Of a stretch of DNA of 39,563 nt, positions 1,255 to 39,563 are shown piece by piece. Position numbers and translations under genes: made by a program. The notes beneath the pieces are model-generated. The model was not told where the DNA came from, searched no databases, and was given only the letters and a program-made list of their open reading frames with translations. The DNA comes from a virus, in UHGV virus genome UHGV-0170560; one strand, written 5' to 3'. Position 1 is the stretch's first letter. The number at the start of each line of letters is the position of its first letter.

Positions 1255-1402
1255 CATTCATAGTGCAGGGATCAAAATCATTCCCACTCAATTATTTACG
1301 GCAACCATAACCAATTGAGTGATAACATTTTTCCAAAACTTCATTTTTTTAGTACCGTTTTATATACCGTCACCGGAAATCAGTACCATGAAAAATGCCA
1401 TG

Positions 1403-3155: not shown

Positions 3156-3315
3156 GCTAAGCCACTGATTTAAAGACTCATTGGTTATCTAAACTGACAT
3201 AAAAACCACCGTTTAATGTGCATGAAGAACCACCTTAGTATGGGGTTCACCATGCATATTAAACCATATATGAATAGTTATTACCTCTACATCAATTAAA
3301 TCACTATCATATAAA

Positions 3316-5901
3316 TTACATCTGGTTATTAATTTTCATTTCAATATTTTTAATGCGCTCAACCAATCCTCGCATAATGAAACGATCAAGTTCTTGATCG
3401 CGGAATTGCCACAAATCTCCTGCTTTCTTAACTAATTTTTTTTCACCAGTATTCACAGGAACAATGAATTTTTCACCATTTTGATCCGTAATTAACTCAT
3501 CTTTAATGACATCTTCATATACATCATCCCATTTGTCATACCCTATAAATCCATAATCTCGCCAGTCCAGGCCCTCATCCTCTAAAACAGCAATAACTGC
3601 CTGAACAGTGGTGCCAGAGTGCAACCTTTTAGAATCATCATCAATCCATGTCCAGAAACCTAGCAGATCAGCCACTTTAATTGCTGCATTAATTTCAGAT
3701 TTGGTGAATCCGCGAATCGGGTCTTTAAGACGACCATCTGAACTTGACTGGGTTCCTCCGGCAAAATAACCAATGTTATATCGTAGTGATGCGCTACCTA
3801 TATTTGAAGTGGCATCAGCTCCAGGAGTGATTCCCCCTGATGTTGCTATTTGCATTGCTGGAGTAGATCCAGACCCATCAGGTCTGAACTGTAATTGACC
3901 TACACTGTTGTATTGTGTTCTCATGAACCAAGATGTAGCATTGCCATTACTGAGCAGGCCAAGAATAGCATCAGAACCAGATGGAGCCGATACAGTGTAC
4001 ATTCCTGTCTTAGTGAGTGACGTCATGGTTTTTCCATCCTTGCTGACCAATAGTCTGTCGGAGCTTGCATCCATCATCACTTTCCATCCTGTAGACCCAT
4101 CAGCAGCATTCTTCGTAAACTGAATTGATGCGTCACCAATATTCCCATCAGAGCCAAGAATTGCAACGGTATAACCGCCTGCTGGGTCTTTACCCACAAC
4201 TCCAAATCTACCGTTTAGCGGATCGCCTGAAACTATTATTTTTACAGGAATCACTCCGGCAAAATTGTCATTAAATATCTGAGAAATATAATTCATGCGC
4301 ATGCCATAAAAACTAACACCTCTCTTTACATTCTCAGAACCAATAAAAGTCGGAATATCTGAATTTGTAATACCATAAGGTGATTGCTCTACCACACCAC
4401 CATAAAACTGGATGTTGGATGCGTGATCAAATTCTAATGCATGATTAGCTCTGGTTCTAAACTCACAGCCATAAAAGTAATGCCCATTTATTTCAGCGGA
4501 TGTCGCATTAACATCACCATCTATATAAAGGCATCGCCATGTGTTTGCGCTAGAGTAATAAGAAACAAGCTCTTCATGAGACATTGATGCGCGACTGTGG
4601 TGATCAAGGGTATAAATACCACATTTATCTACTCTAGTTCCGCTGAGACCATAACTTGCAGGCCCAGTGTTTGAACCAAGAATTGCTAAACCGACTCGCC
4701 CCATAGTTGACCCACCAGTAATGGTATTGTAATCAGGGTCATCGTTTCCTTGCTTTGACTGAATTATTGTACCTGCTTTTGAAAAGTATCCGAATACACA
4801 AACATCCTCCTGAAGATTTCTTGCAGAGTCATCGTAATAAACCCCACACTCATAATCTGCACGTTGGTCTTCATCAGGTTTTGTGTGATTACCGATGGAA
4901 TCATAACAAATCATGTCTTGAACCACGGCAATGCCTTTAAGGACAGATCCACTTGAACCATATTCTGGAGAAAGAACTCTCACGCAATATCGAACACTTG
5001 CGAAATGATCGTCTCTGTTATCTGTAGTAGCTATCTTTGTTCCTGCTCCAGAAAATATAAACGTAGCACCAGGCATATTTTCTTTTCTACCTTCAGCAAG
5101 AAAGAATTTGTCATCATCAGTACCAAATCCAAGAACAGGAGAACCATTACCAATGAATCGAAAATCACCAGGTATTTCTATACCATCAGAGAATCGATAA
5201 ACCCCATCAGGAACAAAAAAAGTTTTCTTTCCAGATGCAAGCAAAGCCTGCCACTGCGTTAAGTTGTCCGTTTTATAGTCACCTTTTAATCCAAAATCGG
5301 TTATGCTGACTGTATCTCGCATCTTATCCTGGAACGTTCGATATATCGCACCAGAACCATACTGAATAAACCAACCAAAACCACCAACAACTCCGGCGAT
5401 TGCAGCATCAACATAATTACGCATTGAGCGATTATTTACAGCATCCTGCTCAAGTGATGGATCTGCAAGGTTAGAAATTCTGTTTTGCTTTGCATCGTAA
5501 TATTTTGCAAGCAAAGATGGTTTCATCAATGCACGTCTGAACCACCCAAAACATTGCTGGATCAGCATCGTCAGGTAGTCAAAAGCATCTTCATGCACTT
5601 CGGGGAAAAATTTTCCCTGATTGCGAAGGTCTGTCTCCTGCACTACATCAAGCACACGATCTATCGTAATTCGCCATCCAGCAGCAAGCGGCGACGGAAG
5701 AACAACAGAACCGCCACTATAAGTGCCCGCCCCAGTTACCGTATAACCGGTATCCAGAACCAATTCTGTTACGTTCCCGTTCAGGTCAGACACCTGAACA
5801 ACCAGGTCGGATTTTTTGAAAATACGGAAGGTATACGGAAATGATGTCGTAGCGCCGTTACCGGTGTATTCGTTGTGGTCAACTTCGGTTGAGACCGTCA
5901 T
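3316..5901 (-). CDS. Tail fibre/tailspike with T7 gp17-like N-terminal adaptor domain and C-terminal intramolecular chaperone (peptidase S74-like) domain
   Basis: 861 aa; N-terminal ~110 aa resemble the T7 gp17 adaptor region by recollection; C-terminal ~140 aa begin with SSDGRLKD (S-D-x-R-x-K autoprocessing motif); central part AT-rich. Confidence 0.8.
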   Translation of the reverse strand: MTVSTEVDHNEYTGNGATTSFPYTFRIFKKSDLVVQVSDLNGNVTELVLDTGYTVTGAGTYSGGSVVLPSPLAAGWRITIDRVLDVVQETDLRNQGKFFPEVHEDAFDYLTMLIQQCFGWFRRALMKPSLLAKYYDAKQNRISNLADPSLEQDAVNNRSMRNYVDAAIAGVVGGFGWFIQYGSGAIYRTFQDKMRDTVSITDFGLKGDYKTDNLTQWQALLASGKKTFFVPDGVYRFSDGIEIPGDFRFIGNGSPVLGFGTDDDKFFLAEGRKENMPGATFIFSGAGTKIATTDNRDDHFASVRYCVRVLSPEYGSSGSVLKGIAVVQDMICYDSIGNHTKPDEDQRADYECGVYYDDSARNLQEDVCVFGYFSKAGTIIQSKQGNDDPDYNTITGGSTMGRVGLAILGSNTGPASYGLSGTRVDKCGIYTLDHHSRASMSHEELVSYYSSANTWRCLYIDGDVNATSAEINGHYFYGCEFRTRANHALEFDHASNIQFYGGVVEQSPYGITNSDIPTFIGSENVKRGVSFYGMRMNYISQIFNDNFAGVIPVKIIVSGDPLNGRFGVVGKDPAGGYTVAILGSDGNIGDASIQFTKNAADGSTGWKVMMDASSDRLLVSKDGKTMTSLTKTGMYTVSAPSGSDAILGLLSNGNATSWFMRTQYNSVGQLQFRPDGSGSTPAMQIATSGGITPGADATSNIGSASLRYNIGYFAGGTQSSSDGRLKDPIRGFTKSEINAAIKVADLLGFWTWIDDDSKRLHSGTTVQAVIAVLEDEGLDWRDYGFIGYDKWDDVYEDVIKDELITDQNGEKFIVPVNTGEKKLVKKAGDLWQFRDQELDRFIMRGLVERIKNIEMKINNQM

Positions 5902-7380: not shown

Positions 7381-7504
7381 CGGGCGGCGGCACAGGGATG
7401 TGCCTTTAAATAATTCTGTACGATTGCAGACAGGGGGGTGAATAGAGTACTATTACCTTACGGGTGATCCATAGCGATTAGGCACCGATACAGGAGGAGC
7501 CCAC

Positions 7505-7537
7505 ATGAGAAAATTTGACGAGTACGAAGGCGTTTAA
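7505..7537 (+). CDS. Possible 10-codon leader peptide (MRKFDEYEGV)
   Basis: Strong RBS CAGGAGGAG 5-8 nt upstream; located between an operator-like palindrome and a terminator hairpin; too short to call confidently. Confidence 0.25.
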   Translation: MRKFDEYEGV

Positions 7538-7555
7538 CATTCGGATAGTTTAATG

Positions 7556-7579
7556 ACGGGGCCATTAGGCCCCGTTTTC
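7556..7579 (+). terminator. Rho-independent terminator / possible attenuator
   Basis: Stem ACGGGGCC/GGCCCCGT with loop ATTA followed by TTTT; immediately upstream of the 7597 gene. Confidence 0.6.
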
Positions 7580-7596
7580 ATGTCTGGAGACAGTTT

Positions 7597-8136
7597 GTGT
7601 TAAGTGAAGAAATGCAATTTGCCATGGCTGTGGCTCAAATCGTAAGTGCAGTCGCGGTTTCGCTTGGCTTGTTCATAGCTATCGCTACTATTATTTATAA
7701 TGTAAATACAGCGAGAAAAGTACACACTTCAGTATTCCTTGGTGAAAGCAGGTTTGATGTAGATTATAAGAAAGGCCTATCTACTATGCGCCGCATTCAC
7801 GAATCGAACAAATCATTCCGCTCTTATATGTATCCAAGCAATGGGCAGGCTGATCTTACGGATGAAGAAAAGATAGAGAAGAGAGAAATAATTTACTGTC
7901 TAGGTTTCTACGAACGCATGGCTGTGAGCGTGAAGCGGAAAACTTATGATGAGACCATGATTAAGGAAGTATTTTACAGCTCCGTTGTAAATAACTATCA
8001 GATTGCGCTACCTCTTATACAAGCTATTAGAGAAAAAGAAAACATAAACACATATTTTAAAGAATATGAATGGTTGGCAACACGATGGAAGGATTGTCCA
8101 TTGAAGGATAAATCCCCATGGTACAAGTTTTGGTAA
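7597..8136 (+). CDS. Membrane-anchored accessory protein; candidate superinfection-exclusion/defence protein
   Basis: 179 aa, GTG start with GGAG RBS; N-terminal TM helix; markedly AT-rich relative to the structural genes; position matches the P22 immI/sieA neighbourhood next to the tailspike. Confidence 0.55.
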   Translation: MLSEEMQFAMAVAQIVSAVAVSLGLFIAIATIIYNVNTARKVHTSVFLGESRFDVDYKKGLSTMRRIHESNKSFRSYMYPSNGQADLTDEEKIEKREIIYCLGFYERMAVSVKRKTYDETMIKEVFYSSVVNNYQIALPLIQAIREKENINTYFKEYEWLATRWKDCPLKDKSPWYKFW

Positions 8137-8158
8137 GCCCGCAGCGCGGGCTTTTTTG
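8137..8158 (+). terminator. Rho-independent terminator
   Basis: Stem GCCCGC/GCGGGC with loop AGC followed by TTTTTT. Confidence 0.75.
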
Positions 8159-8229
8159 TGGACGAAACAAAAGTCAGTGCTACACTCATTGACGCCACAT
8201 TGAGGTGGCTTATAGATGGAAATTTCACA

Positions 8230-8391
8230 ATGAAAAAAGCATTTGCTGCACTGTTCGTTTTGTTGTCTCTGGTAGCTTCAACTCAGGCCTTTGCCGGTCG
8301 TTGTCAGCACGACAGCGATACTGCCGCTGACGGCTCCCGCTGCGGTGGGCGTTCTGCGGATTCCCGCCCGGGCGGCGGTGGCATTCGTTAA
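8230..8391 (+). CDS. Small secreted peptide, function unknown
   Basis: 53 aa from internal ATG; clean Sec signal MKKAFAALFVLLSLVASTQAFA; two Cys in the ~31-aa mature part. Confidence 0.45.
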   Translation: MKKAFAALFVLLSLVASTQAFAGRCQHDSDTAADGSRCGGRSADSRPGGGGIR

Positions 8392-8413
8392 AAACAAGGC
8401 CGCGAAAGCGGCC
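8391..8413 (-). terminator. Rho-independent terminator for the minus-strand virion operon
   Basis: Stem GGCCGC/GCGGCC with loop GAAA; on the minus strand it is followed by a T-run. Confidence 0.6.
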
Positions 8414-8422
8414 TGTGACATG

Positions 8423-8719
8423 TCACGTTCCTTTTCTGAATGATAGCCGTTCGAAAAATGATGACATTCCACCGCAGACAATAGCAAAGATGATCCCACC
8501 AAAGAAGAGAAGGCCAGCCTGCCACCACTCCCACCGCCATACATCCACAGCACCAACCATACCAACAATCGCTCCAACAAATGGAATATAGCTCACGATG
8601 AAAGCAATGGGGGCTGCAATTATCCAGTGCAATCCCCACCATGATTCAAGCCCAGCCATAATTGCTGCCAACTGAAAAAGGCCAACGACGATATAAACAA
8701 TGAATCCTATCGCTTGCAT
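8423..8719 (-). CDS. Small integral membrane protein
   Basis: 98 aa, 3 hydrophobic helices, GGTG RBS; last gene of the minus-strand virion operon. Confidence 0.55.
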   Translation of the reverse strand: MQAIGFIVYIVVGLFQLAAIMAGLESWWGLHWIIAAPIAFIVSYIPFVGAIVGMVGAVDVWRWEWWQAGLLFFGGIIFAIVCGGMSSFFERLSFRKGT

Positions 8720-8731
8720 GTAGTCACCTAT

Positions 8732-8905
8732 TTACCCAGTAAAAATCAGAGGCCTCCCCTCAATAAGGCTTGCAACAAGAACTATTCCCTGCACAACAAA
8801 GATGAACCAGCAAATAGCTTGAGTCTGAGGGTTAAGAAAATATTTGTAGCGGTCAATAAATAACAACCCACCAGAAATTATCACACTCAAAATAATTAAA
8901 AACAC
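8732..8905 (-). CDS. Possible small membrane protein (57 aa, GTG start)
   Basis: Below the track cutoff; my own translation gives VFLIILSVIISGGLLFIDRYKYFLNPQTQAICWFIFVVQGIVLVASLIEGRPLIFTG with AGGAAG RBS upstream. Confidence 0.3.
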   Translation of the reverse strand: MFLIILSVIISGGLLFIDRYKYFLNPQTQAICWFIFVVQGIVLVASLIEGRPLIFTG

Positions 8906-8914
8906 AACACTTCC

Positions 8915-25584: not shown

Positions 25585-25637
25585 GCCTGTAGGTTACCTT
25601 ACAGGTATCATCGAAATTCACATAGCAAGGAGGAATT

Positions 25638-25820
25638 ATGACTGACCAGGTTTATGATTTAACTAAAATTACCGAGATTGAACAGACTAACGATGCGCAA
25701 AGAGCAAACTTCCTTTTAGGAAGCGGATGGGTATTACTCAAGGTAACTGAAACGCAATTCCATGATAACTATGGTGCTTTAAAAGCAGACGTGGTTTTCA
25801 CATTAGGCAATCCACAGTAA
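25638..25820 (+). CDS. Hypothetical small protein (moron)
   Basis: 60 aa, AGGAGG RBS, followed by a hairpin at 25829-25851. Confidence 0.5.
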   Translation: MTDQVYDLTKITEIEQTNDAQRANFLLGSGWVLLKVTETQFHDNYGALKADVVFTLGNPQ

Positions 25821-25895
25821 TTGTTAATAGCCCGCCCTATGCGGGCTCTTTAGTGTGGCAAGATCAGTTATATTATTTTCCGCAGCGAGCCAGCA

Positions 25896-26177
25896 ATGAA
25901 ATTAAAACAGAAGATCGTTAATGCCTTTGTGAATTCAACACATGAGTGGAATATGGCAATGCACAATGCCATCGAGAGAAAAGTACATGAAGGATTTAAA
26001 GATACCTTCCCAAATGGACTGAAGGATCCAGAGGAAACAGAGGAAAGAATCGAGTCCATGCGCACATTCTATTACCAGCGAATGATGAATACAGCCTCCT
26101 TGCTTCTAACAGGCTCATCGCTAATCATCGCTTTAATAGCTCTGCTTGTGGCAATGGTCTCAATCCACTATGCATAG
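25896..26177 (+). CDS. Hypothetical small C-terminally membrane-anchored protein (moron)
   Basis: 93 aa, AT-rich, C-terminal TM helix; converges on the TerL 3' end. Confidence 0.5.
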   Translation: MKLKQKIVNAFVNSTHEWNMAMHNAIERKVHEGFKDTFPNGLKDPEETEERIESMRTFYYQRMMNTASLLLTGSSLIIALIALLVAMVSIHYA

Positions 26178-27643
26178 GGGTCGTAATCTGTGACCGCTTT
26201 CCCCTGCTGGCTCTCCTGACCAAGAATGCGCAGGCGCTTCGTAACCGGGAACGCAAACGTCAGCAGTAGCGCATCGCCTTTACCCGGCGAACGCCCAAGC
26301 CGCTCCTTGATATCTTCCTTCGGTTCGATAACGATTTTACCGTCCACGCGAACTTTGTACTCTGCCGCCGACAGGTCGTCCGCTGTTTCCTGGTCATCCA
26401 GCATGCCGCCCAGCCTCAGCCATGTCTTGCATGAGTTGAACATCTCCCCACGCTTGTTAAGCATCTGCGGGTCAGTAGACGCGCCACCGAACGGAACAAG
26501 TTGCCATGTACGCCCCCAACCGTCACCGATTGACTTCAGACCGGTACCGTAACCGAAGTCGATGAACACCGCGTCAGCCTGGTACTGGTCTTCAAAGTCA
26601 GCGATACGCTTCGCCATAATCAGATCGTCGGTGGTCTTGTTACCAGTCCATAGCACCTTACTGTGCAGCCCCTGCCGCAGGTATATCACCGCGTCATCAA
26701 CGCCGGAGTATGCAGGGTCAACGCCGATTATCACCGGAGCATGTGCAACCTGCGCAGCAGTTACCACCCGTTTCATTGCCTCGTCAGTAAGTCCGGTAGG
26801 GATAAACTGCAATTCAGATGCATCCGGGAATATGCCGCGCACACGGATTTTAACGAAGTCGCTGTCTTCCCCGTAGTCATCAACCCATTTCTGCAACTGC
26901 TGTTTGTTAGTGCCTTCCACCGTCCGGCTGTCAATCTGCGCAGTTTTCCAGCGGTGTTTATATTTGCGGAAACATTCGCGGAAACGACCGGTATTACGCG
27001 TCGGGTTCCCGAACGCCACCCAGATGATTTCGGTGTCTTCGTCCGTCAGCGCACCCTCTGCTACCTCCCACACCAGATCCGCAATGTTCGACGCTTCATC
27101 GAATACCACGATGATGCGTTTGCGCTCGTTGTGTAGTCCGGCGAATGCCTCAGTGTTGTGCTCAGACCAGGGGATTGCGTCAGCTCGCCACCGCTTGTCG
27201 TGCCCAGGGTCATTGCTGTACATCGCGGTAGCGGTACAGGTAAACCAGTCTTTCGTGATAGCAAGGTTCGACCACTTGATAATTTCCGGCCAGGTCTTCG
27301 TTCGTAGCTGGTTGTCGGTGTTGGCGGTCACCACGACCTTACAATCCTCGCAAGTGGACATGCCCCAGTTGATCAGCATTGAGATGAATGCTGATTTACC
27401 AATACCGTGACCAGAAGCACGTGCCAGCATAATCGGCTGATAGCGCGTCTCTGGATTCTGCAGGTGGTCACGTATCTCTCGGAACGCATCAGCCTGCCAC
27501 TGACGTGGGCCGGTAGCATGTGCCAGTTCAGTCCCCTCTTCCCCCCACGGGAACGCATAGAGGGCATAGCCAAGCGGATCGTGAGTGAACCCTGCAATAT
27601 CCTCGATTAACTGCTCTTCAGGAGATAACGCTGTATCTGTCAC
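26168..27643 (-). CDS. Terminase large subunit
   Basis: 491 aa; Walker A-like GHGIGKS, Walker B-like IIVVFDEAS, C-terminal nuclease-type acidic motifs; ATGA-coupled to TerS. Confidence 0.85.
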   Translation of the reverse strand: MTDTALSPEEQLIEDIAGFTHDPLGYALYAFPWGEEGTELAHATGPRQWQADAFREIRDHLQNPETRYQPIMLARASGHGIGKSAFISMLINWGMSTCEDCKVVVTANTDNQLRTKTWPEIIKWSNLAITKDWFTCTATAMYSNDPGHDKRWRADAIPWSEHNTEAFAGLHNERKRIIVVFDEASNIADLVWEVAEGALTDEDTEIIWVAFGNPTRNTGRFRECFRKYKHRWKTAQIDSRTVEGTNKQQLQKWVDDYGEDSDFVKIRVRGIFPDASELQFIPTGLTDEAMKRVVTAAQVAHAPVIIGVDPAYSGVDDAVIYLRQGLHSKVLWTGNKTTDDLIMAKRIADFEDQYQADAVFIDFGYGTGLKSIGDGWGRTWQLVPFGGASTDPQMLNKRGEMFNSCKTWLRLGGMLDDQETADDLSAAEYKVRVDGKIVIEPKEDIKERLGRSPGKGDALLLTFAFPVTKRLRILGQESQQGKAVTDYDPYA

Positions 27644-28236
27644 TGATTACCATCCTGACGTTCTTTGAGTCGCTTCCTGGCTGCTGCTATGCGATCAGCA
27701 ATTGTCACATTCACATTAACATCCAGACGTTCTTTGAACGCGTTGACATCAACATGCTTACCAATCAGTTCTAGGTTCTTCACCTTGTCAGGCCATTTAA
27801 TTTTTTTGAGGATTGTCTCTATCGAGTCCTCGTTCATGTTCATGATGGTCGATGACAGATCAAAGCCGCTAAGCGTAGTGCGCCAGATTTTCGGCCACTC
27901 ACGGATTGGTTTAAGGCTCCCATCGTCGTTGAGGATATCGATCACGTCCATCTGGTCGATCTCCACCAGGCGCATGAGAACGTAATCAGCACTGACGCGC
28001 ATTCGTTTGTTGCGCTCCTCCATCAACTCGGCAATCCGTTTTTGAATGCGTTCATCGCGCATCATAACACTGGCTTTAACTGCCGCTGTATTTGGGGAGA
28101 ATCCAGCGTTAATCGCAGCCTGAGTCTGGTTTTCAGGCGTTTTGATGTATGACTGGCAATAAGCCTCCTGCATTGCTGTGAGCGGCTTAAATTGCGTTGA
28201 TTTGCGTTTATAGGTTTTAGGTTCAGCAGGCATCAT
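27640..28236 (-). CDS. Terminase small subunit
   Basis: 198 aa from ATG (the track ORF starts at an upstream TTG); basic helix-rich protein immediately upstream of TerL. Confidence 0.6.
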   Translation of the reverse strand: MMPAEPKTYKRKSTQFKPLTAMQEAYCQSYIKTPENQTQAAINAGFSPNTAAVKASVMMRDERIQKRIAELMEERNKRMRVSADYVLMRLVEIDQMDVIDILNDDGSLKPIREWPKIWRTTLSGFDLSSTIMNMNEDSIETILKKIKWPDKVKNLELIGKHVDVNAFKERLDVNVNVTIADRIAAARKRLKERQDGNQ

Positions 28237-28354
28237 AACCACCCTGGTAATTGTTACCGTTGTGGTAATAGTACCATGCAAAATAAAGCCACCATAGTTG
28301 GCGGCAGTATTCAAAACCCATCAAATTCATCATGCATAATCTACTCGTGACATG

Positions 28355-28696
28355 TCACACTATTAATTTAGTTTCATGCCAGCCTTTAGTCACCCAGCAT
28401 TGCGAGTCACCATTACACGGGCATGAATTAACGGGAACTTTCTCGCCGCACTTACCGCAACGTTTTCTGCTAATCGATTTTATACGCCCGCGCACGCGTG
28501 CATCATCCTGGCGGATCAGTAACGCTATATACTCACCAAATTCGTAAGGAGAACGCCCGGGGCGACGCGTGGCACAGTTACGTTCCAGCATTTCAATTTC
28601 CTGAGTATCAAGCACAATCTCCAGCTTACGTACACCGGATTCAGCTTGTCTGGCTCTCTGAGCGGCTTTGCGCTCTGCTGCTGATTTAGCCATCAA
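28355..28696 (-). CDS. Hypothetical Cys-rich protein (possible zinc-binding)
   Basis: 113 aa with CGKCGE...CPCNG cluster; no HNH His signature recognised. Confidence 0.45.
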   Translation of the reverse strand: MMAKSAAERKAAQRARQAESGVRKLEIVLDTQEIEMLERNCATRRPGRSPYEFGEYIALLIRQDDARVRGRIKSISRKRCGKCGEKVPVNSCPCNGDSQCWVTKGWHETKLIV

Positions 28697-28967
28697 TATT
28701 TACCTTTATCGCGAACACCTTTACCGGTTTATCACCGAAGTGCGGATGTGTGATTGTCTTGATTTCATATCCGTCATACGGGACGTTAATTCTGCGACTG
28801 GAGTCGTCGCGCTTCGGATATCCCCTTGTGATAATCAGGCGGTCATACTTACGGTTAACGAGGCGCTTATTCCAGTAGTCATTACACAGGCGATACTCTT
28901 CCGTTTTCTCCCCGCGAATCATGGCATCGAAGTATTCACCTTTAACGGCAAGTTGCAGGTTAGCCAT
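28686..28967 (-). CDS. ASCH-like domain protein
   Basis: 93 aa from internal ATG; N-terminal G-x-K-T-x-E-x-R pattern typical of ASCH. Confidence 0.45.
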   Translation of the reverse strand: MANLQLAVKGEYFDAMIRGEKTEEYRLCNDYWNKRLVNRKYDRLIITRGYPKRDDSSRRINVPYDGYEIKTITHPHFGDKPVKVFAIKVNIDG

Positions 28968-29227
28968 TACCGCACCTCCAGTCTCCATACCGCCTGACCA
29001 ATCCGGCTGGCATAGGTATCTTTGGATACTGCTCCGTCTTTAGCCAGCTCCATAAGAATTTTGCGCAAATCTGCCGAACGCCATTCTTCATCAGGAAATT
29101 CCTTCTCCATTGCCAACCGCAGATTCCAGGTTGCCATCCTGAATTGATATTCCCCGCCGAGAGCTTTATCTTGCAGGGCAGCCCGGGAACGCATCACCTG
29201 CAAAACCTTCTCTTTTACATCCATCAT
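28967..29227 (-). CDS. Hypothetical protein
   Basis: 86 aa from ATG overlapping the upstream stop (ATGA). Confidence 0.45.
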   Translation of the reverse strand: MMDVKEKVLQVMRSRAALQDKALGGEYQFRMATWNLRLAMEKEFPDEEWRSADLRKILMELAKDGAVSKDTYASRIGQAVWRLEVR

Positions 29228-29799
29228 TTCGCCTCCTGCGGCGGTTCTGGTAGCGGCATCCAGTGTGACGGTTTCCACGACGCACCAGGAATTATCCACC
29301 CATCATTAGCGTCAGGATGACCCGGGATGTAAGTCGCCCATTTCATTCGCCAGTCACCTTTCCTGCCAAACTCCACGGCAACAAGAACGGCTGTTTTGGT
29401 ATCCGGCATTCGCTCACTACAGCTTATCCAACCATCCGGAGTTACCGGAGAGTTGCCATTTACATCGAAGTTTGGCTCTGCGTCCTGAACCAGGAGGATG
29501 TAACCATTCTTGGCCGTATCAAGTTCTAACGCCTCGGTGACGGTGCCGAAATAGCGATTACCTAAATCAGCATCACAAGTGCTTACATCAATGGAAACTT
29601 CCATCCCTTCGATTAATTCTGGCAAGTTGTAAGTTTGGCTTACAGGTTCTGCACTATCAGCTTCGCGCCGCTTCTGTAGCTCTGCTGCCATCGCTCTCAC
29701 GACTTCAACTGGTGCCCTTGCAGCAAACTCTATGTTGGTGATTAGCTCATTAAGATATTGCTCGCCTGGATACTGTTTCTTATCGGTTATAGTGGTCAT
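29224..29799 (-). CDS. DUF551-like protein
   Basis: 191 aa; C-terminal HWMPLPEPP motif characteristic of DUF551. Confidence 0.6.
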   Translation of the reverse strand: MTTITDKKQYPGEQYLNELITNIEFAARAPVEVVRAMAAELQKRREADSAEPVSQTYNLPELIEGMEVSIDVSTCDADLGNRYFGTVTEALELDTAKNGYILLVQDAEPNFDVNGNSPVTPDGWISCSERMPDTKTAVLVAVEFGRKGDWRMKWATYIPGHPDANDGWIIPGASWKPSHWMPLPEPPQEAK

Positions 29800-29800
29800 A

Positions 29801-30253
29801 TCACTCTCCTTTTCCCTGAAGCATGGCGGCACGACAGGCGTTCCAGCCTCTCACCTCTGCAATAGCGGCAACAGCATCGACCGCGTACATTTTAAGAGGG
29901 TTAGGCATTGGTTTTTCTTCAGGTACTACTGGAATGGGTGGGGCGGCGTAGACCTCAATAATTCCATTATCAATAGGCCATTCTCCATCCTTGAGGTAGT
30001 CACTTGTGCCGTCAACTTGCTGTTCTGCAATGTGGAATGCACCTATTGGTTTTGCCTCAAGCGATGCCAGAGCAATCCGCGCCAGCTCACGCACAACTTC
30101 AGGGGGAGCGTGACGGTCATTCAGGTCATCCCACAGACGTAGCATGTTATCGCTACCAGGGTGAACATCCTCATTAGTTCCGGCCAGCGCACTAATAACC
30201 TCATCGGCTGCTTCAATAATTTTCTGTGCCTGTTCTCTGGTAATAGTGGTCAT
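29801..30253 (-). CDS. Hypothetical protein (shares MTTIT N-terminus with the adjacent gene)
   Basis: 150-aa ORF with GAGGA RBS. Confidence 0.5.
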   Translation of the reverse strand: MTTITREQAQKIIEAADEVISALAGTNEDVHPGSDNMLRLWDDLNDRHAPPEVVRELARIALASLEAKPIGAFHIAEQQVDGTSDYLKDGEWPIDNGIIEVYAAPPIPVVPEEKPMPNPLKMYAVDAVAAIAEVRGWNACRAAMLQGKGE

Positions 30254-30828: not shown

Positions 30829-31524
30829 TCACCTCCTTTGATGCGAATGCCAGCGGCGTGGCACATTAACTTCCACGATGCGCACAGTTGGTTTGTACAT
30901 CTCAATCGCTGTCAGCCAGTCAGCGCCAGTCATGCGCTTTTCTGCATCGCCATTAGTCCACTTAACCGGTACACCAATAGCCTTCATCGCGATTTCTATT
31001 TCCCCGGCAATGGCGCTTTTTCCGCAACCAGTAAAACCAGAAACAACGACAAGAACTTCACCTTTGGCTGGTTTTATTTCCCGTGCTTCCAGTTCTGCAA
31101 TACGCTTACTCCCATCCGAGATAACACCTTCGTAATACTCGCGTTGCTCGTTGAGTTTTGATTTTGCTTCCTCAAGCTCAACACGCAGCTTCCCTACCGT
31201 TAGCGCAATTTCCTCGTTCTCCTGGTCGCGGCGTTTGATGTATTGCTGGTTTCTTTCCCGTTCATCCAGAAGCGCCAGCACAGTAGCCGGATTGGCTGCG
31301 GCGATGAATTCAGCATTGGCCTGCTGTTCAGTTTGGAAATCTTCATCGAAACCGCTTTCAGGATGCGCTCCTTCAATTCTGCAAATGGGAATATATCCAG
31401 CAACTTCACGATGAATTAGTGCATCATCACCATCAAATCGGCCATCTCCATATTCGAGCGACCACTCGCCACACGTTGCTTTCTCTGCCGCCTCGCGCAG
31501 TGCCTGATAGTTAATTTCGCTCAC
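30829..31524 (-). CDS. Ea22-like protein with C-terminal Walker-A-like motif
   Basis: 231 aa; N-terminus MSEINYQALREAAEKATCGEWSLEY resembles lambdoid Ea22-family proteins; C-terminal GFTGCGKS. Confidence 0.55.
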   Translation of the reverse strand: MSEINYQALREAAEKATCGEWSLEYGDGRFDGDDALIHREVAGYIPICRIEGAHPESGFDEDFQTEQQANAEFIAAANPATVLALLDERERNQQYIKRRDQENEEIALTVGKLRVELEEAKSKLNEQREYYEGVISDGSKRIAELEAREIKPAKGEVLVVVSGFTGCGKSAIAGEIEIAMKAIGVPVKWTNGDAEKRMTGADWLTAIEMYKPTVRIVEVNVPRRWHSHQRR

Positions 31525-31828
31525 TGGCTGCCTCCTTTGCTGGGCTTTCTAACTTCTGAGTGGTTGTATCAAACTCAAACAACTTAACCACGTCATCAAA
31601 CAGGACATAATCGCCATCAGAATCTTCAGTCATGTCAGCGCCACAATCCTGACCGAACGAGTCACAACCATCCATATCAAGTTCGTATCGCTTGAGTTTT
31701 GCGATATTTGATAAATTCAGCGCCAGTACAGCAAGGTCATAAACCTCATCAGCGGTATACCCGGCACCATGCCCATACATTTCAATACGGGATATGATTT
31801 CTTCTACACGTTGTTTTGTGATCGTCAT
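31511..31828 (-). CDS. Hypothetical acidic protein
   Basis: 105-aa ORF in the nin-like block. Confidence 0.45.
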   Translation of the reverse strand: MTITKQRVEEIISRIEMYGHGAGYTADEVYDLAVLALNLSNIAKLKRYELDMDGCDSFGQDCGADMTEDSDGDYVLFDDVVKLFEFDTTTQKLESPAKEAASERN

Positions 31829-31830
31829 TT

Positions 31831-32349
31831 TTACTCACCTTCCTGTTCTTCCAGAAAAATACGCATAGCCTCAAGCATCTCTTCGGTGTCATACGGTGAC
31901 AACTTGTCACGCAGGATGTGTTCAATGCTGTTAATGAACTTGCGGATTGCTTTGCGTTCAATTTCAGCAAGGAATGCGTCGGTGGCCGGGGTTTTGATTT
32001 CGTTAAGTGCATCACTGAATCCACCTCTCTCCATACCTAGCTCTGCTTCGTAATCGGCATCGAATGCAGCGTCTTTGCAGAACTTCTTCAGCCCCGCATT
32101 CTCCGCAGCCAGCGCCGAAAATTTCTCGTGTGCCAACTTAACAGCTGCATCAGCCTGCTTAATTGACTCAATCGCTTTCTGCTGGTCTTCGGCCAGCGCA
32201 TTAGCACGCACCAGTTGCACTTCCAGTTGCGTTGCCAAATCGCTGATCAGCTTTGCCACACTGCGCATATCAACGGCACCACATTCTGCTTTCAGTTCCG
32301 AAGCCATCTCATGCCCGGCGGCAACTAACCCTTTGATATTACTTTCCAT
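31831..32349 (-). CDS. Hypothetical coiled-coil protein
   Basis: 172-aa ORF. Confidence 0.45.
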   Translation of the reverse strand: MESNIKGLVAAGHEMASELKAECGAVDMRSVAKLISDLATQLEVQLVRANALAEDQQKAIESIKQADAAVKLAHEKFSALAAENAGLKKFCKDAAFDADYEAELGMERGGFSDALNEIKTPATDAFLAEIERKAIRKFINSIEHILRDKLSPYDTEEMLEAMRIFLEEQEGE

Positions 32350-35221: not shown

Positions 35222-35806
35222 ATGAAAAGTATCCAGGACGTCCGCAGGCAAAATCTCAACGACTTGATCGACCGTGAATTCAATGGTGTTCAGACGCGGA
35301 TGGCAGAAAAACTTGGAACTCAGGCAAATCTGGTAAACCGCTGGGCTCTTGGCAAGAAGGTTATCGGCGACCAGGTTGCGCGAAAAATTGAAGCTGCCGC
35401 CAATAAACCACGTAACTGGCTTGATATCGATCGCTCGCTTTCTCAGGAAGGTTTTCAGCCTGTCGGCCCAAGCGACATTGGTCAGCTGGCGGCTCACAAC
35501 CTGGAACGCTGGATGAGCGAAAGCCGCGACCTTTCAACACAGGGAAAACTTCACCGCGCATCCGGCGTCGCCCAGGTGACAATCAGCCGCCTGTTAAACA
35601 ATGAGGTCAGCGTTTCCATTTCCACCCTGGAGAATGTTGCATCTGCATTCGGGCGTCACGGATATGAATTACTGATTCACCCGCACGACCCCGCGACTAT
35701 CAACTATGACCGCTCGCGCTACGCATTGTTACCTGAAACAGAGAAGGCAAAGATCGAAAGTTACATTGAATTTGTCATCAACCAGAACGAAAAAAGCAAA
35801 CAATAA
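35222..35806 (+). CDS. CI-like repressor without recognisable S24 autocleavage domain
   Basis: 194 aa with two HTH-like segments; no Ser/Lys peptidase-type C-terminal motifs recognised. Confidence 0.6.
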   Translation: MKSIQDVRRQNLNDLIDREFNGVQTRMAEKLGTQANLVNRWALGKKVIGDQVARKIEAAANKPRNWLDIDRSLSQEGFQPVGPSDIGQLAAHNLERWMSESRDLSTQGKLHRASGVAQVTISRLLNNEVSVSISTLENVASAFGRHGYELLIHPHDPATINYDRSRYALLPETEKAKIESYIEFVINQNEKSKQ

Positions 35807-35828
35807 AACTATAGTTTTCAGCAAGTAA

Positions 35829-35850
35829 GCCGCCTCATGGCGGCTTTTTT
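35829..35850 (+). terminator. Rho-independent terminator after the repressor gene
   Basis: Stem GCCGCC/GGCGGC with loop TCAT followed by TTTTTT. Confidence 0.75.
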
Positions 35851-35959
35851 ATTGCCCATGAAATTACCTTACGGGTAATTTTTTTAACTCATATCTATTG
35901 ACATCAAACCAAATACGAATAATCATTACCTCAACAGTAACAAGCCGAGGTAACAAGTT

Positions 35960-36112
35960 ATGCAGTGGAAAATCATCAACGGTTGGTACTGCGTTACTGC
36001 ATGCGGATTCATGAGCTGGAAGTTCCGCACCTTACAGGAAGGCATTAAGTGGGCTTTCGTCAGCAAAGAAGCTCGCGATGTGGCCAACGATAACGAGATA
36101 TGGGAGGGCTGA
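35960..36112 (+). CDS. Hypothetical small protein, first gene of the leftward-early-like operon
   Basis: 50 aa, below track cutoff, GAGG RBS; preceded by an operator-like palindrome at 35864-35878. Confidence 0.4.
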   Translation: MQWKIINGWYCVTACGFMSWKFRTLQEGIKWAFVSKEARDVANDNEIWEG

Positions 36113-36114
36113 TA

Positions 36115-36414
36115 ATGAACGTTAATCAGCAGAAAAATCTTCAAAAAATCATGCTGGCATTCGACAAGGACTACCGCCTGTCAGAACAGCTATATGACCG
36201 ACAAGTTGAACTGATTGAGAGCATCCGACTTCATCAACTGTCCTCAACTTTCGACGTTGTAACAGGCAAAGGCGTTCGCCAGGAAGTACTGGAGGCTGCT
36301 AAAGACAGCCCTGAGTTCGAAGAACTGATGGATGCATACCGGCGCGAGGCAATGGCAATTATCGCCCGCTGGGATCTGGCGGATCAGCTTGATGGGCAGA
36401 GGGACGCGGCATGA
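36115..36414 (+). CDS. Hypothetical protein
   Basis: 99 aa from ATG preceded by GGGAGGG; coupled to the exonuclease gene. Confidence 0.5.
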   Translation: MNVNQQKNLQKIMLAFDKDYRLSEQLYDRQVELIESIRLHQLSSTFDVVTGKGVRQEVLEAAKDSPEFEELMDAYRREAMAIIARWDLADQLDGQRDAA

Positions 36415-37232
36415 AAGCGGGAATTTATTTCGACATCAGCAACGAAGACTACCACGCCGGTGACGGCGTGAGTAAATCGCAACTGGACATGGTTGCCAAG
36501 AATCCGGCGCTTCTTAAATGGGTTCAGGCAGCACCAGAAGACGAAGAGAAAAAGTCTGCACTGGATATGGGAACCGCATTGCACTGTCTGCTTCTGGAGC
36601 CTGGAGAGTTCGACAAACGCTTCATTGTTTCACCGAAATTCGAACGTCGGACGAAACAAGGTAAAGCTGACGAAGAGGCATTTCTTCGTGATGTGGCGGA
36701 TATGGGGATTACGGTACTTGATGCCGAGCAGTGGCGGAAACTGGAGCTGATGCGTGATAGCGCAATGGCTCACCCGGCGGCACGCTGGATGCTGGAAGCA
36801 CCTGGTTACTGCGAAGCATCAATGTACTGGAACGATGAAGATACTGGTGAGTTGTGCCGCATTCGTCCAGACAAATGGCTGAACGAGCACAACGTGATCG
36901 TCGACGTGAAAAAGGTTGCAGATATGGACCGTTTTGCACGCCACATCGAGGAATTCCGCTACCACGTGCAGGACGCAATGTACCGCGAAGGCGCAATGAG
37001 GGTTACTGGTCAGCCGCATGGTTTTTTCTTTCTTGCCGTGAGCGAAAGCATTGATTGTGGTCGATATCCGGTACGCGTGTTCGAGCTGGATGCGCCGGAT
37101 GTCGATGCCGGGCACGCTCTGTTCCGCCGGGATCTGAATACCTATCACGAATGCCGCATCAACGATGAGTGGGGCGGAGTGGAAATTATTAAACGCCCTG
37201 ACTGGGCACGCAAACAGGATATGTACATATGA
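36411..37232 (+). CDS. PD-(D/E)xK-type recombination exonuclease
   Basis: 273 aa; D...E/D-x-K-like motifs (RIRPDKW, VIVDVKK); directly upstream of and coupled to the annealing-protein gene. Confidence 0.6.
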   Translation: MKAGIYFDISNEDYHAGDGVSKSQLDMVAKNPALLKWVQAAPEDEEKKSALDMGTALHCLLLEPGEFDKRFIVSPKFERRTKQGKADEEAFLRDVADMGITVLDAEQWRKLELMRDSAMAHPAARWMLEAPGYCEASMYWNDEDTGELCRIRPDKWLNEHNVIVDVKKVADMDRFARHIEEFRYHVQDAMYREGAMRVTGQPHGFFFLAVSESIDCGRYPVRVFELDAPDVDAGHALFRRDLNTYHECRINDEWGGVEIIKRPDWARKQDMYI

Positions 37233-38170
37233 GCAACGACATCGCAAACATCAACGCACCAGTAGACACAGCAATCGCTGGAACTGCTGCAACTATTTTC
37301 AGCCCAGACGGCTTGAACCAACTGATGAAATTCGCCGAGGTAATGGCGCAAAGCCGCGTAACGGTACCGGCGCATCTCGCCGGGAAACCAGCTGATTGCA
37401 TGGCCGTGGCAATGCAAGCTGCGCAGTGGGGAATGAACCCGTTTGCCGTGGCTCAGAAAACCCATGTTGTGAACGGCACGCTAGGTTATGAAGCCCAATT
37501 AGTAAACGCAGTTATCTCAACGATGTCGCCAACAAAAGATCGCATCAACTACGAGTGGTTCGGGCCGTGGGAACGCGTGATCGGTAAGTTTGTTGAGAAA
37601 ACATCCAAAAACGGCAATCCATATATCGCACCAGGCTGGACTCTAAAAGACGAAGAAGGCTGCGGTGTTCGCGTATGGGCAACCATGAAGGGCGAGGATC
37701 AACCTCGAGTGCTTGAGTTAATGCTGTCTCAAGCACAGGTAAGAAACTCCACACTTTGGGCCAGTGATCCGAAACAACAACTCGCATACCTTGCGACAAA
37801 ACGCTGGTCTCGCTTGCACTGTCCTGACGTAATCATGGGCGTCTACACACCAGACGAATTACAGGAAACGGCACCGCGCGTTGAGCGAGACATTACTCCG
37901 CAAACGACCACTGCTGCGGGAATGAACAGTCTGATCAACGCTAAACAAGTGAAAAAGCCTGATGAGCAAACGCGTAAAGCGGATAGCCGTGATCCAGAAG
38001 AAATGCTGATGGCCTTTACCAGCGCAGCGATGAATTACAGCACTGTCTCCGAACTGGATAAAGCTTACAAATACATTGCACAAAAACTTTCAGATGATGA
38101 CGAACTGCTGGCAAAAGCCACCGACGTTTACAGCGTTCGTCGGGAAGAATTAAACGAAACATCTATGTAA
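37229..38170 (+). CDS. Single-strand annealing protein, Redbeta/RecT-like
   Basis: 313 aa; QWGMNPF...NGTLGYEAQ and ERDITPQ resemble lambda Redbeta regions (QYGLNPW, ERDITPV) by recollection. Confidence 0.6.
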   Translation: MSNDIANINAPVDTAIAGTAATIFSPDGLNQLMKFAEVMAQSRVTVPAHLAGKPADCMAVAMQAAQWGMNPFAVAQKTHVVNGTLGYEAQLVNAVISTMSPTKDRINYEWFGPWERVIGKFVEKTSKNGNPYIAPGWTLKDEEGCGVRVWATMKGEDQPRVLELMLSQAQVRNSTLWASDPKQQLAYLATKRWSRLHCPDVIMGVYTPDELQETAPRVERDITPQTTTAAGMNSLINAKQVKKPDEQTRKADSRDPEEMLMAFTSAAMNYSTVSELDKAYKYIAQKLSDDDELLAKATDVYSVRREELNETSM

Positions 38171-38219
38171 CCACCACCGCGGCGCCACGCGCGTCGCACT
38201 GCAACCAAGAGAGGTATTT

Positions 38220-38468
38220 ATGAAAGGTGCATTAGGTAAGAAGGAACTCCTGGCGGTGGTGCCACTGTCATGGAGCACTATCGACCGCATGGAGCGCGCA
38301 GGGGAATTTCCTAAACGCTGGTATATCACTGACAAACGCTGCGCATGGAACCGTGATGAAGTTGAGCGTTGGCTTGATGAACGTCAGGCAGCAAGCCCGG
38401 CAGAGTTCCAGGGTAAAAAGCCTCCTGTTCAGCAACGTGTATATCGTCCTGTGAGCAACGCTGCATGA
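38220..38468 (+). CDS. AlpA/excisionase-like HTH regulator
   Basis: 82 aa; LSWSTIDRMERAGEFPKRWYIT...WNRDEVERWL fits the AlpA-type HTH pattern. Confidence 0.6.
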   Translation: MKGALGKKELLAVVPLSWSTIDRMERAGEFPKRWYITDKRCAWNRDEVERWLDERQAASPAEFQGKKPPVQQRVYRPVSNAA

Positions 38469-38577
38469 GTGTGCTGCTAAGGCACTGGAGCAAATGGTCA
38501 GGATGGTACTTATTCCTGGCCTCTGTTTCAGCATGGCTTTATCTGCTGGCATTAATTTTCAGAGAGGGTTGGATTAA

Positions 38578-38877
38578 GTGAAAAAGTTAAGCCGACTTGA
38601 AAAATATCACATGAACAAGGTTTCAATGCGCAGTCCGTCAAAGATTGTCGCCGTTACTCCTGCGGCGATAGAGATCGAAAAACGCGCGATTGAAAGAGAG
38701 AAAAAAGGGCAGTTCCGCATTGCCGCTCACCTTTGGCTTCAGTGTATGGATGTTGCTTCTGGTGATGTTGAGCGTGCGAGGATCGCGGTTCGCAGGGACC
38801 AATGTATCACAAAAGGTAACGGCCTTCGCCGTGGCGACTATAGCGGCATAGGATGTTGTGGGGTGGTTTATGACTAA
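38578..38877 (+). CDS. Hypothetical protein (weak, uncertain resemblance to PerC-type small regulators)
   Basis: 99-aa ORF, GTG start, weak GAGGG RBS. Confidence 0.35.
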   Translation: MKKLSRLEKYHMNKVSMRSPSKIVAVTPAAIEIEKRAIEREKKGQFRIAAHLWLQCMDVASGDVERARIAVRRDQCITKGNGLRRGDYSGIGCCGVVYD

Positions 38878-39520
38878 GAAATACACACTAATCTATGCAG
38901 ATCCACCCTGGGTATACCGGGACAAAGCCGCAGATGGTAATCGCGGTGCCGGTTTTAAATATCCGGTTATGAGTGTGCTGGACATCTGCCGCCTTCCTGT
39001 GTGGGATTTGGCCGATGAAAACTGTCTGTTGGCCATGTGGTGGGTGCCAACACAACCACTCGAAGCACTAAAAGTTGTTGAAGCCTGGGGATTCCGTCTG
39101 ATGACCATGAAGGGATTCACGTGGATAAAATGTGGTAGTCGACAACCAGATAAACTGGTTATGGGTATGGGACACATGACTCGCGCCAATAGTGAAGATT
39201 GCCTGTTTGCGGTAAAGGGAAAACTACCTCCGCGCATTAATGCAGGTATCGTTCAGTCATTTACCGCACCGCGGCTTGAGCACTCAAGAAAACCAGATGT
39301 CGTTCGTGAAAAACTTGTGCAATTGTTAGGCGATGTTTCTCGCATTGAACTGTTCGCCCGCCAGTCGTCTCATGGCTTCGATGTTTGGGGTAATCAGTGC
39401 GAAGACCCGGCAGTGCAACTACACCCTGGATACGCGTTGGATATTGGCGGATTAACAAATGCATTCAGCAATTCTCCGCTGTCACCAACAGACAACCAGG
39501 GGCGGGAGCGTGCAGCATGA
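38870..39520 (+). CDS. DNA N6-adenine methyltransferase, MT-A70 family
   Basis: 216 aa from ATG; DPPW catalytic motif in IYADPPWVY near the N-terminus; stop codon lies 2 nt before the adapter. Confidence 0.75.
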   Translation: MTKKYTLIYADPPWVYRDKAADGNRGAGFKYPVMSVLDICRLPVWDLADENCLLAMWWVPTQPLEALKVVEAWGFRLMTMKGFTWIKCGSRQPDKLVMGMGHMTRANSEDCLFAVKGKLPPRINAGIVQSFTAPRLEHSRKPDVVREKLVQLLGDVSRIELFARQSSHGFDVWGNQCEDPAVQLHPGYALDIGGLTNAFSNSPLSPTDNQGRERAA

Positions 39521-39522
39521 AC

Positions 39523-39563
39523 CTGTCTCTTATACACATCTGACGCTGCCGACGATCGCATAA
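39523..39563. other. Sequencing adapter remnant (reverse complement of Nextera read-1 adapter plus 8-nt index-like tail); not biological
   Basis: CTGTCTCTTATACACATCTGACGCTGCCGACGA followed by TCGCATAA. Confidence 0.9.

Follow-up and report, generated by a model that had tools for sequence, protein, structure and literature searches.

We analysed the UHGV virus genome UHGV-0170560, a stretch of 39,563 nucleotides (the window in the following), and describe the genes that lead up to its far end. All genes named in the window lie on the plus strand. The block is preceded by an HTH repressor gene (35222-35806), the equivalent of phiV10 p40. A repressor role was shown for ZX5 ORF21, which is identical to it. 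The gene is followed by a terminator-like hairpin with a T-run on the same strand (35827-35846), which is annotated as a terminator in phiV10, and by the promoter-like site TTGACA-17-AATCAT (35898-35926, plus strand). The latter is a candidate early-left promoter that matches in consensus only, and such matches showed no enrichment over shuffles. The first gene of the operon is a conserved ORF of 50 aa (35960-36112; phiV10 p39; phrog_898, 1.9e-38). It is followed by a conserved ORF of 99 aa (36115-36414; phiV10 p38; phrog_856, 1.9e-55) with a stop codon that overlaps the start of the exonuclease gene (ATGA). A third small gene further downstream encodes a single-pass membrane peptide of 38 aa (38465-38581; phrog_17484, 4.7e-27) that is conserved across genera. 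These three genes had been missed in the preliminary description, whereas the ORFs it did describe all exist and have family matches well beyond chance. The gene overlaps in the block are ATGA or GTGA, and we found no plus-strand terminator inside it.

The larger genes start with a RecE-type 5'-3' exonuclease that consists of the nuclease domain only (273 aa, 36411-37232). Its earlier assignment as a PD-(D/E)xK exonuclease agrees with the matches to Pfam DUF3799 (5e-22) and to the RecE nuclease domain in PDB 3H4R (2.9e-77). The motifs RPD (aa 152-154) and DVK (aa 165-167) of the catalytic D...D-x-K are intact. We rejected the full-length RecE (exonuclease VIII) equivalog, as the match reached 306 bits against an NCBIfam cut-off of 1269 and covered only positions 606-873 of the model. 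The neighbouring gene, linked by an ATGA overlap, encodes a RecT-family single-strand annealing protein (313 aa, 37229-38170; PF03837, 2.6e-44, 151.6 bits compared to a gathering score of 24). It had been described as Redbeta-like, which holds at the level of the superfamily but not of the family: a Pfam scan at E<=0.01 returned RecT only and no Red-beta family model, and all PHROG matches were RecT-like or generic annealases.

Next in the block is an AlpA-family winged-helix protein of 82 aa (38220-38468), a probable recombination directionality factor for a P4-type integrase. The AlpA-like assignment was recovered with Phage_AlpA (PF05930; 24.2 bits, cut-off 21), with PDB 8c3t_A ('AlpA family phage regulatory protein', 1.8e-11) and with phrog_66 ('excisionase and transcriptional regulator', 2e-16). 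Beyond the membrane peptide lies the small GTG-start ORF that had also been reported (38578-38877). It encodes a small helical protein (99 aa from the GTG) of the PerC family (PF06069, 30.1 bits compared to 22.6; phrog_868, 6e-62) and overlaps the start of the methyltransferase gene by 8 nt. The GTG start is supported because the N-terminal extension is conserved in other genera. A profile search for relatives yielded little beyond close Uetakevirus-type proteins and Lonsdalea.

The last complete gene encodes an MT-A70 family N6-adenine methyltransferase (216 aa, 38870-39520; PF05063, 7.6e-22, 78.5 bits compared to 23.9), as previously proposed, and solved MT-A70 and METTL3 relatives were matched. 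The ORF could start at 38858 or 38870; both PGAP and phiV10 place the start at the second of these, an ATG, and in this form the DPPW motif (38900-38911) occupies aa 11-14. The enzyme is an orphan as described, with no nuclease gene adjacent and the PerC-like and DUF1382 genes as neighbours. A type II restriction-modification system was rejected since there is no cognate endonuclease gene beside the methyltransferase. In Klebsiella and Scandinavium relatives we observed a weak PDDEXK_5-like ORF at that spot, with a score below the cut-off. Of the DUF1382 gene the window holds the first two codons (ATGAAC, 39517-39522), and the genuine sequence ends six bases into the gene.

Both ends of the window are technical. 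A Nextera adapter remnant (…AGATGTGTATAAGAGACAG) takes up positions 1-29, and adapter read-through (CTGTCTCTTATACACATCTGACGCTGCCGACGA plus 8 more bases, TCGCATAA) takes up positions 39523-39563. The adapter sequence CTGTCTCTTATACACATCT starts at 39523 and its reverse complement is found at 11-29. The preliminary description had noted that the window ends in adapter; this is borne out at both ends, and the genuine sequence stops at 39522. Positions 30-1275 are E. coli chromosome with yfgH (110-628) and yfgI (644-1183), as identified by genome matches and by the Pfam families Gly-zipper and DUF5384. This flank was matched in 5422 of the 5426 complete E. coli genomes. It is joined on the yfgI side to the att core AATCATTCCCACTCAAT (1276-1292), which marks the junction between prophage and host and duplicates the 3' end of guaA. 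The homology to phiV10 begins at the same position, 1276. Read in reverse complement, the window core equals the attP/attB core published for phiV10, epsilon15 and ZX5, and its 17-mer also adjoins int/guaA in a further locus (L002). With the core joined to yfgI, the window shows integration at the guaA 3' end via the core attgagtgggaatgatt. At 1364-1372 we encountered ATACCGTCA, one copy of the motif TGACGGTAT, which is repeated on both arms of the phiV10 attP and is a candidate arm-type site of the integrase.

Across 36100-39522 the window is 98.5% identical at the nucleotide level to Escherichia phage phiV10 (Uetakevirus, epsilon15-like). Apart from mosaic gaps, it is collinear with this phage from the attP core round to the stop codon of the methyltransferase (phiV10 26736 round to 28370). 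The sole phiV10 segment that is missing is 26737-28369 (1633 bp), which holds an attP arm, int and the DUF1382 gene. Very probably, the region forms the distal part of the early-left operon in a prophage of the phiV10/epsilon15 type (Uetakevirus) that is integrated at the guaA 3' end. The gene block 36411-39520 is not a new module and consists of ordinary early genes of a published phage family.

The preliminary description had seen no integrase, and a tblastn search across the whole window likewise gave no homologue (best E 0.24). Among its explanations, synteny with phiV10 and with near-identical prophages in complete E. coli genomes lends strong support to an integrase just outside the window. 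In phiV10 and in E. coli EFF60 and KOr019 the order is methyltransferase, DUF1382, convergent int and guaA, with attL between int and guaA. The DUF1382 gene measures 195 nt in phiV10 and the near-identical E. coli prophages. We found the block from methyltransferase to guaA contiguous in 534 of 5426 complete E. coli genomes. As informative we then counted the IMG/VR loci that extend 1442 nt or more past the methyltransferase (n = 69). A convergent tyrosine integrase of the P4/IntA type follows in all 69, in 41 of them after a gap of ∼200 bp and with attL and guaA beyond it; the distance was about 0.2-1.3 kb in every informative relative. Furthermore, eight species representatives of other genera have kept the order AlpA-Mem38-PerC-...-MTase-...-Int. 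The integrase found downstream shows Arm-DNA-bind_3 and Phage_integrase domains and 29% identity to K-12 IntA (4e-49). Judged by this gene order, the missing integrase most likely lies ∼200 bases past the contig end. Its absence is most likely an assembly artefact; the contig end was made by sequencing adapter. This strain's own integrase is outside the data, and there is a small probability that int was deleted in this strain.

For the operon as a whole we propose the following course of events. Once the repressor is inactivated, a single transcript would cover nine tightly coupled genes. Phage-driven homologous recombination would be the task of the RecE-domain exonuclease and RecT. The AlpA-family protein, as excisionase, would bind the att arm beside int and steer Int, expressed on the other strand from a separate promoter, towards attL x attR excision. 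Late products of the same transcript would be the PerC-like protein and the MT-A70 enzyme, and the enzyme would methylate adenine during lytic growth, most likely in DNA at GATC-like sites.

Within the module, only the AlpA-like protein qualifies as an excisionase-type candidate, and a role in excision is probable. The preliminary description had noted that an Xis-like gene normally neighbours an integrase. A premise that the two have to be adjacent is too strict: alpA of CP4-57 is located 1.24 kb from intA with one gene between them, a distance similar to that found here. In CP4So, P4-type integrases depend on AlpA-family proteins as excisionases, and AlpA promotes excision of GIsul2, an island that targets guaA. 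We found no excisionase experiment in any Uetakevirus in the literature; the proteins named in the ZX5 study are limited to integrase, repressor and anti-repressor. The AlpA annotation itself spans both excisionases and pure transcription regulators. It is rather unlikely that the protein is purely a regulator, either an activator of int or of downstream early genes or an antiterminator, and that excision is left to another factor or to Int alone. Such a role would fit the annotation of K-12 AlpA as a transcriptional activator, to which the protein shows weak similarity (a marginal 32% over 28 aa). However, no other protein in the module matches an excisionase-type family (phrog_66), and the gene sits downstream of the recombination genes in a position like that of lambda xis. 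It also accompanies this integrase in eight further genera, including cases in which other genes stand in place of RecE/RecT.

The methyltransferase is closely related to M.EcoPA8orf6770P of an Stx phage, with 155 of 187 residues identical (83%, aa 1-187). This relative needs the product of the overlapping upstream gene, PNB-2: alone it has weak activity on DNA, and bound to PNB-2 it prefers 16S rRNA (Gong et al. 2023). The rRNA claim rests on a SAM-utilisation assay, and the modified base is unmapped. M.EcoGV, its relative from O104, is assigned the motif GATC in secondary sources (after Fang et al. 2012). We also considered avoidance of GATC in the prophage and rejected it, as the ratio of observed to expected sites (0.72) is unremarkable among 4-bp palindromes. 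The methylome of a lysogen, which the preliminary description had proposed as a check, is a weak test and cannot probe the methyltransferase. No new motif would be expected there from an active enzyme either, because the early-lytic operon is repressed in the lysogen and the nearest characterised relatives are assigned GATC or 16S rRNA. GATC is already methylated by the host Dam, which masks the likely DNA motif of the enzyme.

The Stx-phage relative suggests another reading, in which the MT-A70 protein would serve as catalytic subunit in an enzyme of two proteins that targets 16S rRNA or another RNA and tunes prophage induction, with the PerC-like protein as partner or controller. We regard this as quite unlikely. 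It would be consistent with the shared core and with the dependence of the Stx-phage enzyme on an overlapping upstream gene. At that exact position, overlapping the methyltransferase start, PerC-domain genes occur in no fewer than five distinct prophage contexts, the present one and four that are unrelated (L100, L102, L104 and L105). The PerC model is all-helical with no HTH match and has a conserved but disordered C-terminal tail (YSGI...GVVYD). A Foldseek search with this model against the PDB gave nothing significant (best E 0.89, none below 0.8) and returned generic MIT/TPR-like helical repeats only. Against this reading, PNB-2 is absent from the window and has no detectable similarity to the PerC-like protein: the two did not align and the PerC-domain HMM gave PNB-2 no score. 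In the window enzyme, other residues stand in place of the C-terminal ∼27 aa for which binding of PNB-2 was proposed, and the tails are unrelated. In related prophages of other genera the PerC and methyltransferase genes are 0.15-1.2 kb apart with other genes between them. The rRNA preference rests on the assay noted above. The idea that the methyltransferase tail co-varies with the presence of an adjacent PerC gene found no support, as the tails differ among PerC-linked loci. PNB-1 and the AlpA-like protein did not align either, and homology of the partner genes (PNB-2 with PerC, PNB-1 with AlpA) was rejected; only their position is analogous. We see a slim chance that the product of the PerC-like gene is devoted to the methyltransferase as its partner or controller, as its repeated position might suggest. 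If so, some 'PerC family transcriptional activators' would work via an MT-A70 enzyme, possibly on rRNA, and not by DNA binding. The effects reported for the PerC family range from activation to repression to none, and the recurrence of PerC-domain genes next to MT-A70 genes offers an inexpensive lead on the molecular mechanism of these proteins.

An integrase-less element in this strain, either a plasmid prophage or a decayed prophage without int, is very improbable: none was found in the 39.5-kb window and a plasmid form was raised as a speculation in the ZX5 study to account for discrepancies in titre, but chromosome and phage DNA are joined at the known att core within the window, which refutes the plasmid prophage considered earlier, the contig end is adapter and not biology, and int lies downstream in the 69 informative relatives and the 534 complete genomes.

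The closest known systems are phiV10 (NC_007804, p33-p39), epsilon15, vB_EcoP_ZX5 and phiv142-3, which share the gene order, the att core and the guaA integration site with the window. In phiV10 a single RecE-RecT fusion of 586 aa is annotated, whereas the window has two overlapping genes. phiV10 carries an extra A in an A-run (window 37212-37214), and EFF60 and KOr019, both E. coli genomes aligned, have two overlapping genes. The DUF1382 gene, int and one att arm of phiV10 are absent from the window most likely only because the contig stops. The exonuclease aligns over its full length with the C-terminal domain structure 3H4R of the Rac prophage RecE and with positions 606-873 of the exonuclease VIII model, and like RecE it is paired with a RecT-family annealase; the N-terminal part of Rac RecE, ∼600 residues, is missing.

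Close systems also include M.EcoPA8orf6770P-PNB-2 of Stx phage PA8 and M.EcoGV. In PA8 the catalytic core with DPPW is shared with the window enzyme at 83% identity. In PA8 a DUF1382 gene likewise comes next, a convergent integrase is nearby and the upstream gene overlaps the methyltransferase start. Here, however, that upstream gene belongs to the PerC family and is not PNB-2, and the C-terminal tail differs. The trio of P4-type integrase, AlpA-family and PerC-family proteins also recurs in gram-negative PICIs (int-alpA ... perC). These are satellites, whereas the window element has structural and lysis genes and is a phage in its own right, complete. PerC-like proteins of PICIs had variable or no effect on LEE, and a similarity to ANR proteins was noted for them; we obtained an ANR match for the PerC-like protein here as well.

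CP4-57 (IntA/AlpA), CP4So of Shewanella (AlpA), the Yersinia HPI (Hef) and GIsul2 (AlpA) all combine an arm-binding P4-type integrase with a small winged-helix AlpA ∼1.2 kb away, and GIsul2 targets the guaA 3' end as the phiV10-type prophage does. In contrast to these elements the AlpA gene of the window is embedded in a phage early operon, and its excision role is a prediction. The lambda PL operon has the order gam-bet-exo ... xis-int. Both are repressor-proximal leftward early operons with an exonuclease/annealase pair followed by an excision factor (a candidate in the window), and both end near int and att. The pair in the window is of the RecE/RecT type and not Exo/Bet, and the excision candidate is an AlpA-family protein and not lambda Xis. 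Unlike in lambda, int of the phiV10 type is convergent with its own promoter region beside attP, and the PerC-like, MT-A70 and DUF1382 genes intervene.

The preliminary description reported a recombination and modification module at 36411-39520 with an AlpA-like gene and no integrase in view. We confirmed this observation with corrections: the module belongs to the known gene content of the phiV10/epsilon15 phages, and the integrase seems to be missing because the contig ends in adapter. The same (i5-side) Nextera adapter occupies both ends, at 1-29 (last bases AGATGTGTATAAGAGACAG) and 39523-39563 (opening with CTGTCTCTTATACACATCT at 39523), and the contig terminated there because the reads were untrimmed. 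The final 8 bases, TCGCATAA, look like index S522 (TTATGCGA) in reverse complement. Genuine sequence spans 30-39522 and breaks off six bases into the DUF1382 gene (ATGAAC, then adapter). The window contains no integrase homologue, and the sole phiV10 segment absent from it, 26737-28369, carries one att arm, int and DUF1382. Downstream of the MT-A70 methyltransferase (MTase) gene, phiV10 and the E. coli genomes EFF60 and KOr019 have DUF1382, a convergent 416-aa tyrosine integrase, attL and guaA, and 534 of 5426 complete E. coli genomes carry the block from MTase to attL unbroken. The integrase is likewise present in each of the 69 IMG/VR loci that have a 97-100% identical MTase and at least 1442 nt downstream of it (gap ∼200 nt in 41, ∼680 nt in 23), and the gene order is kept in eight species representatives of other genera. 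The integrase of these relatives has arm-binding and catalytic domains and 29% identity to K-12 IntA. Synteny thus supports the proposal that the integrase lies just beyond the window, almost certainly ∼200 bp (at most ∼1.3 kb) past the contig end, judging by the relatives. In some E. coli prophages (H81-H83) a Ser/Thr protein phosphatase gene replaces DUF1382 between MTase and int; this position is a second variable slot, starting exactly at the contig break.

The AlpA-like protein (38220-38468) scored above the Phage_AlpA threshold and matched a solved 'AlpA family phage regulatory protein'. Alone among the module's proteins it falls into an excisionase-type family (phrog_66), and its gene accompanies this integrase in other genera, even where RecE/RecT have been replaced. 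In CP4So, P4-type integrases depend on AlpA-family proteins as excisionases, and excision of the island GIsul2, which targets guaA as here, is stimulated by an AlpA-family protein. By analogy, the protein is probably an excisionase. The expectation that an Xis-like gene normally neighbours its integrase fails for CP4-57, where alpA lies 1.24 kb from intA with one gene between; this is about the spacing inferred here, and therefore the distance from int is no argument against an excisionase role. A role purely as transcription regulator is unlikely, but it draws on the presence of pure regulators within the AlpA family, the marginal similarity to K-12 AlpA and a literature in which we found no experimentally tested excisionase for any Uetakevirus.

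All ORFs previously listed are real, and the block shows 98.5% identity to phiV10 genes p33-p39. The PD-(D/E)xK exonuclease (36411-37232) aligned over its full length with 3H4R, a structure of the RecE nuclease domain (2.9e-77), and its RPD and DVK motifs are intact. The gene at 37229-38170 does encode an annealase, of the RecT family (2.6e-44); no Red-beta model matched. Three genes of the same operon had been overlooked: two upstream genes and one for a conserved 38-aa membrane peptide (38465-38581). The window, EFF60 and KOr019 have RecE and RecT as two genes with an ATGA overlap, and PGAP also annotates two genes in the other E. coli records listed. phiV10 p37, annotated as a 586-aa 'RecE-RecT fusion', differs by one extra A in the A-run 37212-37214, within 37209-37232 (CGCAAAACAGG against CGCAAACAGG), and the fusion probably arose through a homopolymer sequencing error, unless the frameshift is specific to that strain. 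Between a 99-aa ORF and the AlpA gene, the RecE-like and RecT genes are missing from about 15 of the 80 near-identical IMG/VR loci; in these 80 loci the two recombination genes form an exchangeable cassette, and the genes for AlpA, the membrane peptide, PerC, MTase and Int are fixed.

The small GTG-start ORF (38578-38877) is present and encodes a PerC-family protein. PGAP annotates an ATG start at 38626 and phiV10 a start at 38611. We favour the GTG, which overlaps the stop of the preceding gene (GTGA), because the residues upstream of the PGAP start are conserved: 16 residues from the GTG (KLSRLEKYH...) are kept in PerC homologues of other genera. The 99-aa form, including 38578-38625, is thus likely the real one. 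The structure model shows a small bundle of helices and a conserved, low-confidence C-terminal tail (YSGI...GVVYD); it had no HTH and no significant structural matches. The protein matched the ANR family weakly, a similarity already noted for PICI PerC-like proteins, whose LEE effects vary.

A PerC-domain gene overlaps the MT-A70 start in the window, and one also lies directly upstream of an MT-A70 homologue and overlaps its start in four other prophage contexts, none Uetakevirus-like, from Dryocola, Buttiauxella (two) and Lonsdalea (L100 3567-4010, L102 3546-4004, L104 3492-4004, L105 3778-4002); in three of these an N-terminal winged helix is fused to the PerC domain. The recurrence suggests a gene pair. 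That the PerC-like protein is the dedicated partner of the enzyme would fit this overlap but is improbable, as PNB-2, partner of the related Stx-phage PA8 enzyme, shows no detectable PerC likeness and other genera have 0.15-1.2 kb of accessory genes between PerC and MTase. This gap is a variable slot in the related prophages (L085 3393-4004, L088 3417-3995, L092 2937-4004, L093 3492-3998, L087 3771-4001), holding a DndB-like protein (Citrobacter werkmanii), DUF1317 or a 203-aa ORF, and is a possible hot spot for accessory or defence genes. In Klebsiella and Scandinavium a weakly PDDEXK_5-like ORF lies directly upstream of the MTase and is perhaps its nuclease partner.

The MTase (38870-39520) has the DPPW motif, and 'orphan' is a fair label because no nuclease gene is adjacent. 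Phages commonly carry members of its family (451 records, ∼120 of them Stx phages at 82-83% identity), and its residues 1-187 are 83% identical to M.EcoPA8orf6770P of phage PA8. That enzyme alone has weak activity; with PNB-2, encoded by an overlapping upstream gene, it forms a 1:1 complex that favours 16S rRNA as substrate and increases spontaneous induction (Gong et al.). PNB-2 was not found in the window, and the enzyme here differs in its C-terminal tail, the proposed PNB-2-binding part. The O104 relative M.EcoGV is listed as GATC-specific and reportedly methylated GATC on over-production. Our best guess, by analogy, is that the MTase methylates DNA adenine during the lytic phase with Dam-like specificity. 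A lysogen methylome would be uninformative either way, because the operon should be repressed there and GATC is already methylated by the host Dam.

At the other end, 30-1275 is E. coli chromosome (yfgH and yfgI, present in 5422 of 5426 complete genomes), and collinearity with Escherichia phage phiV10 begins at 1276, running with some mosaic gaps from phiV10 position 26736 across the genome ends to 28370. The junction is the 17-mer AATCATTCCCACTCAAT (1276-1292), which in reverse complement is the attP/attB core published for phiV10, epsilon15 and ZX5; the 17-mer also occurs next to int and guaA in a complete genome. We therefore identify the window as an integrated phiV10-type (Uetakevirus) prophage, covered from its yfgI-side junction to nearly its opposite end, and the suggested plasmid prophage is excluded by the host junction. 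Copies of the motif TGACGGTAT / ATACCGTCA flank the attP core on either side (window 1364-1372; phiV10 26640-26648, 26862-26870 and 26891-26899) and mark candidate arm-type integrase binding sites. Segments in which no match to phiV10 reached 150 bp (3273-5466, 7392-8911, 25585-26168, 28967-30233, 31321-32191) comprise the tailspike region and small early genes and look like ordinary mosaicism.

A terminator-like hairpin at the end of the repressor gene (35827-35846) is followed by a promoter-like TTGACA-17-AATCAT (35898-35926, consensus match only) and then nine genes on the + strand, most overlapping by ATGA or GTGA, with gaps of at most ∼50 nt and no terminator-like site on that strand within the block. 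This arrangement points to a single operon. It would resemble the lambda PL operon, in which recombination genes precede the excision factor and then int; unlike in lambda, int is convergent in the relatives and would have to be transcribed from a separate promoter within the 190-bp arm adjoining attP.
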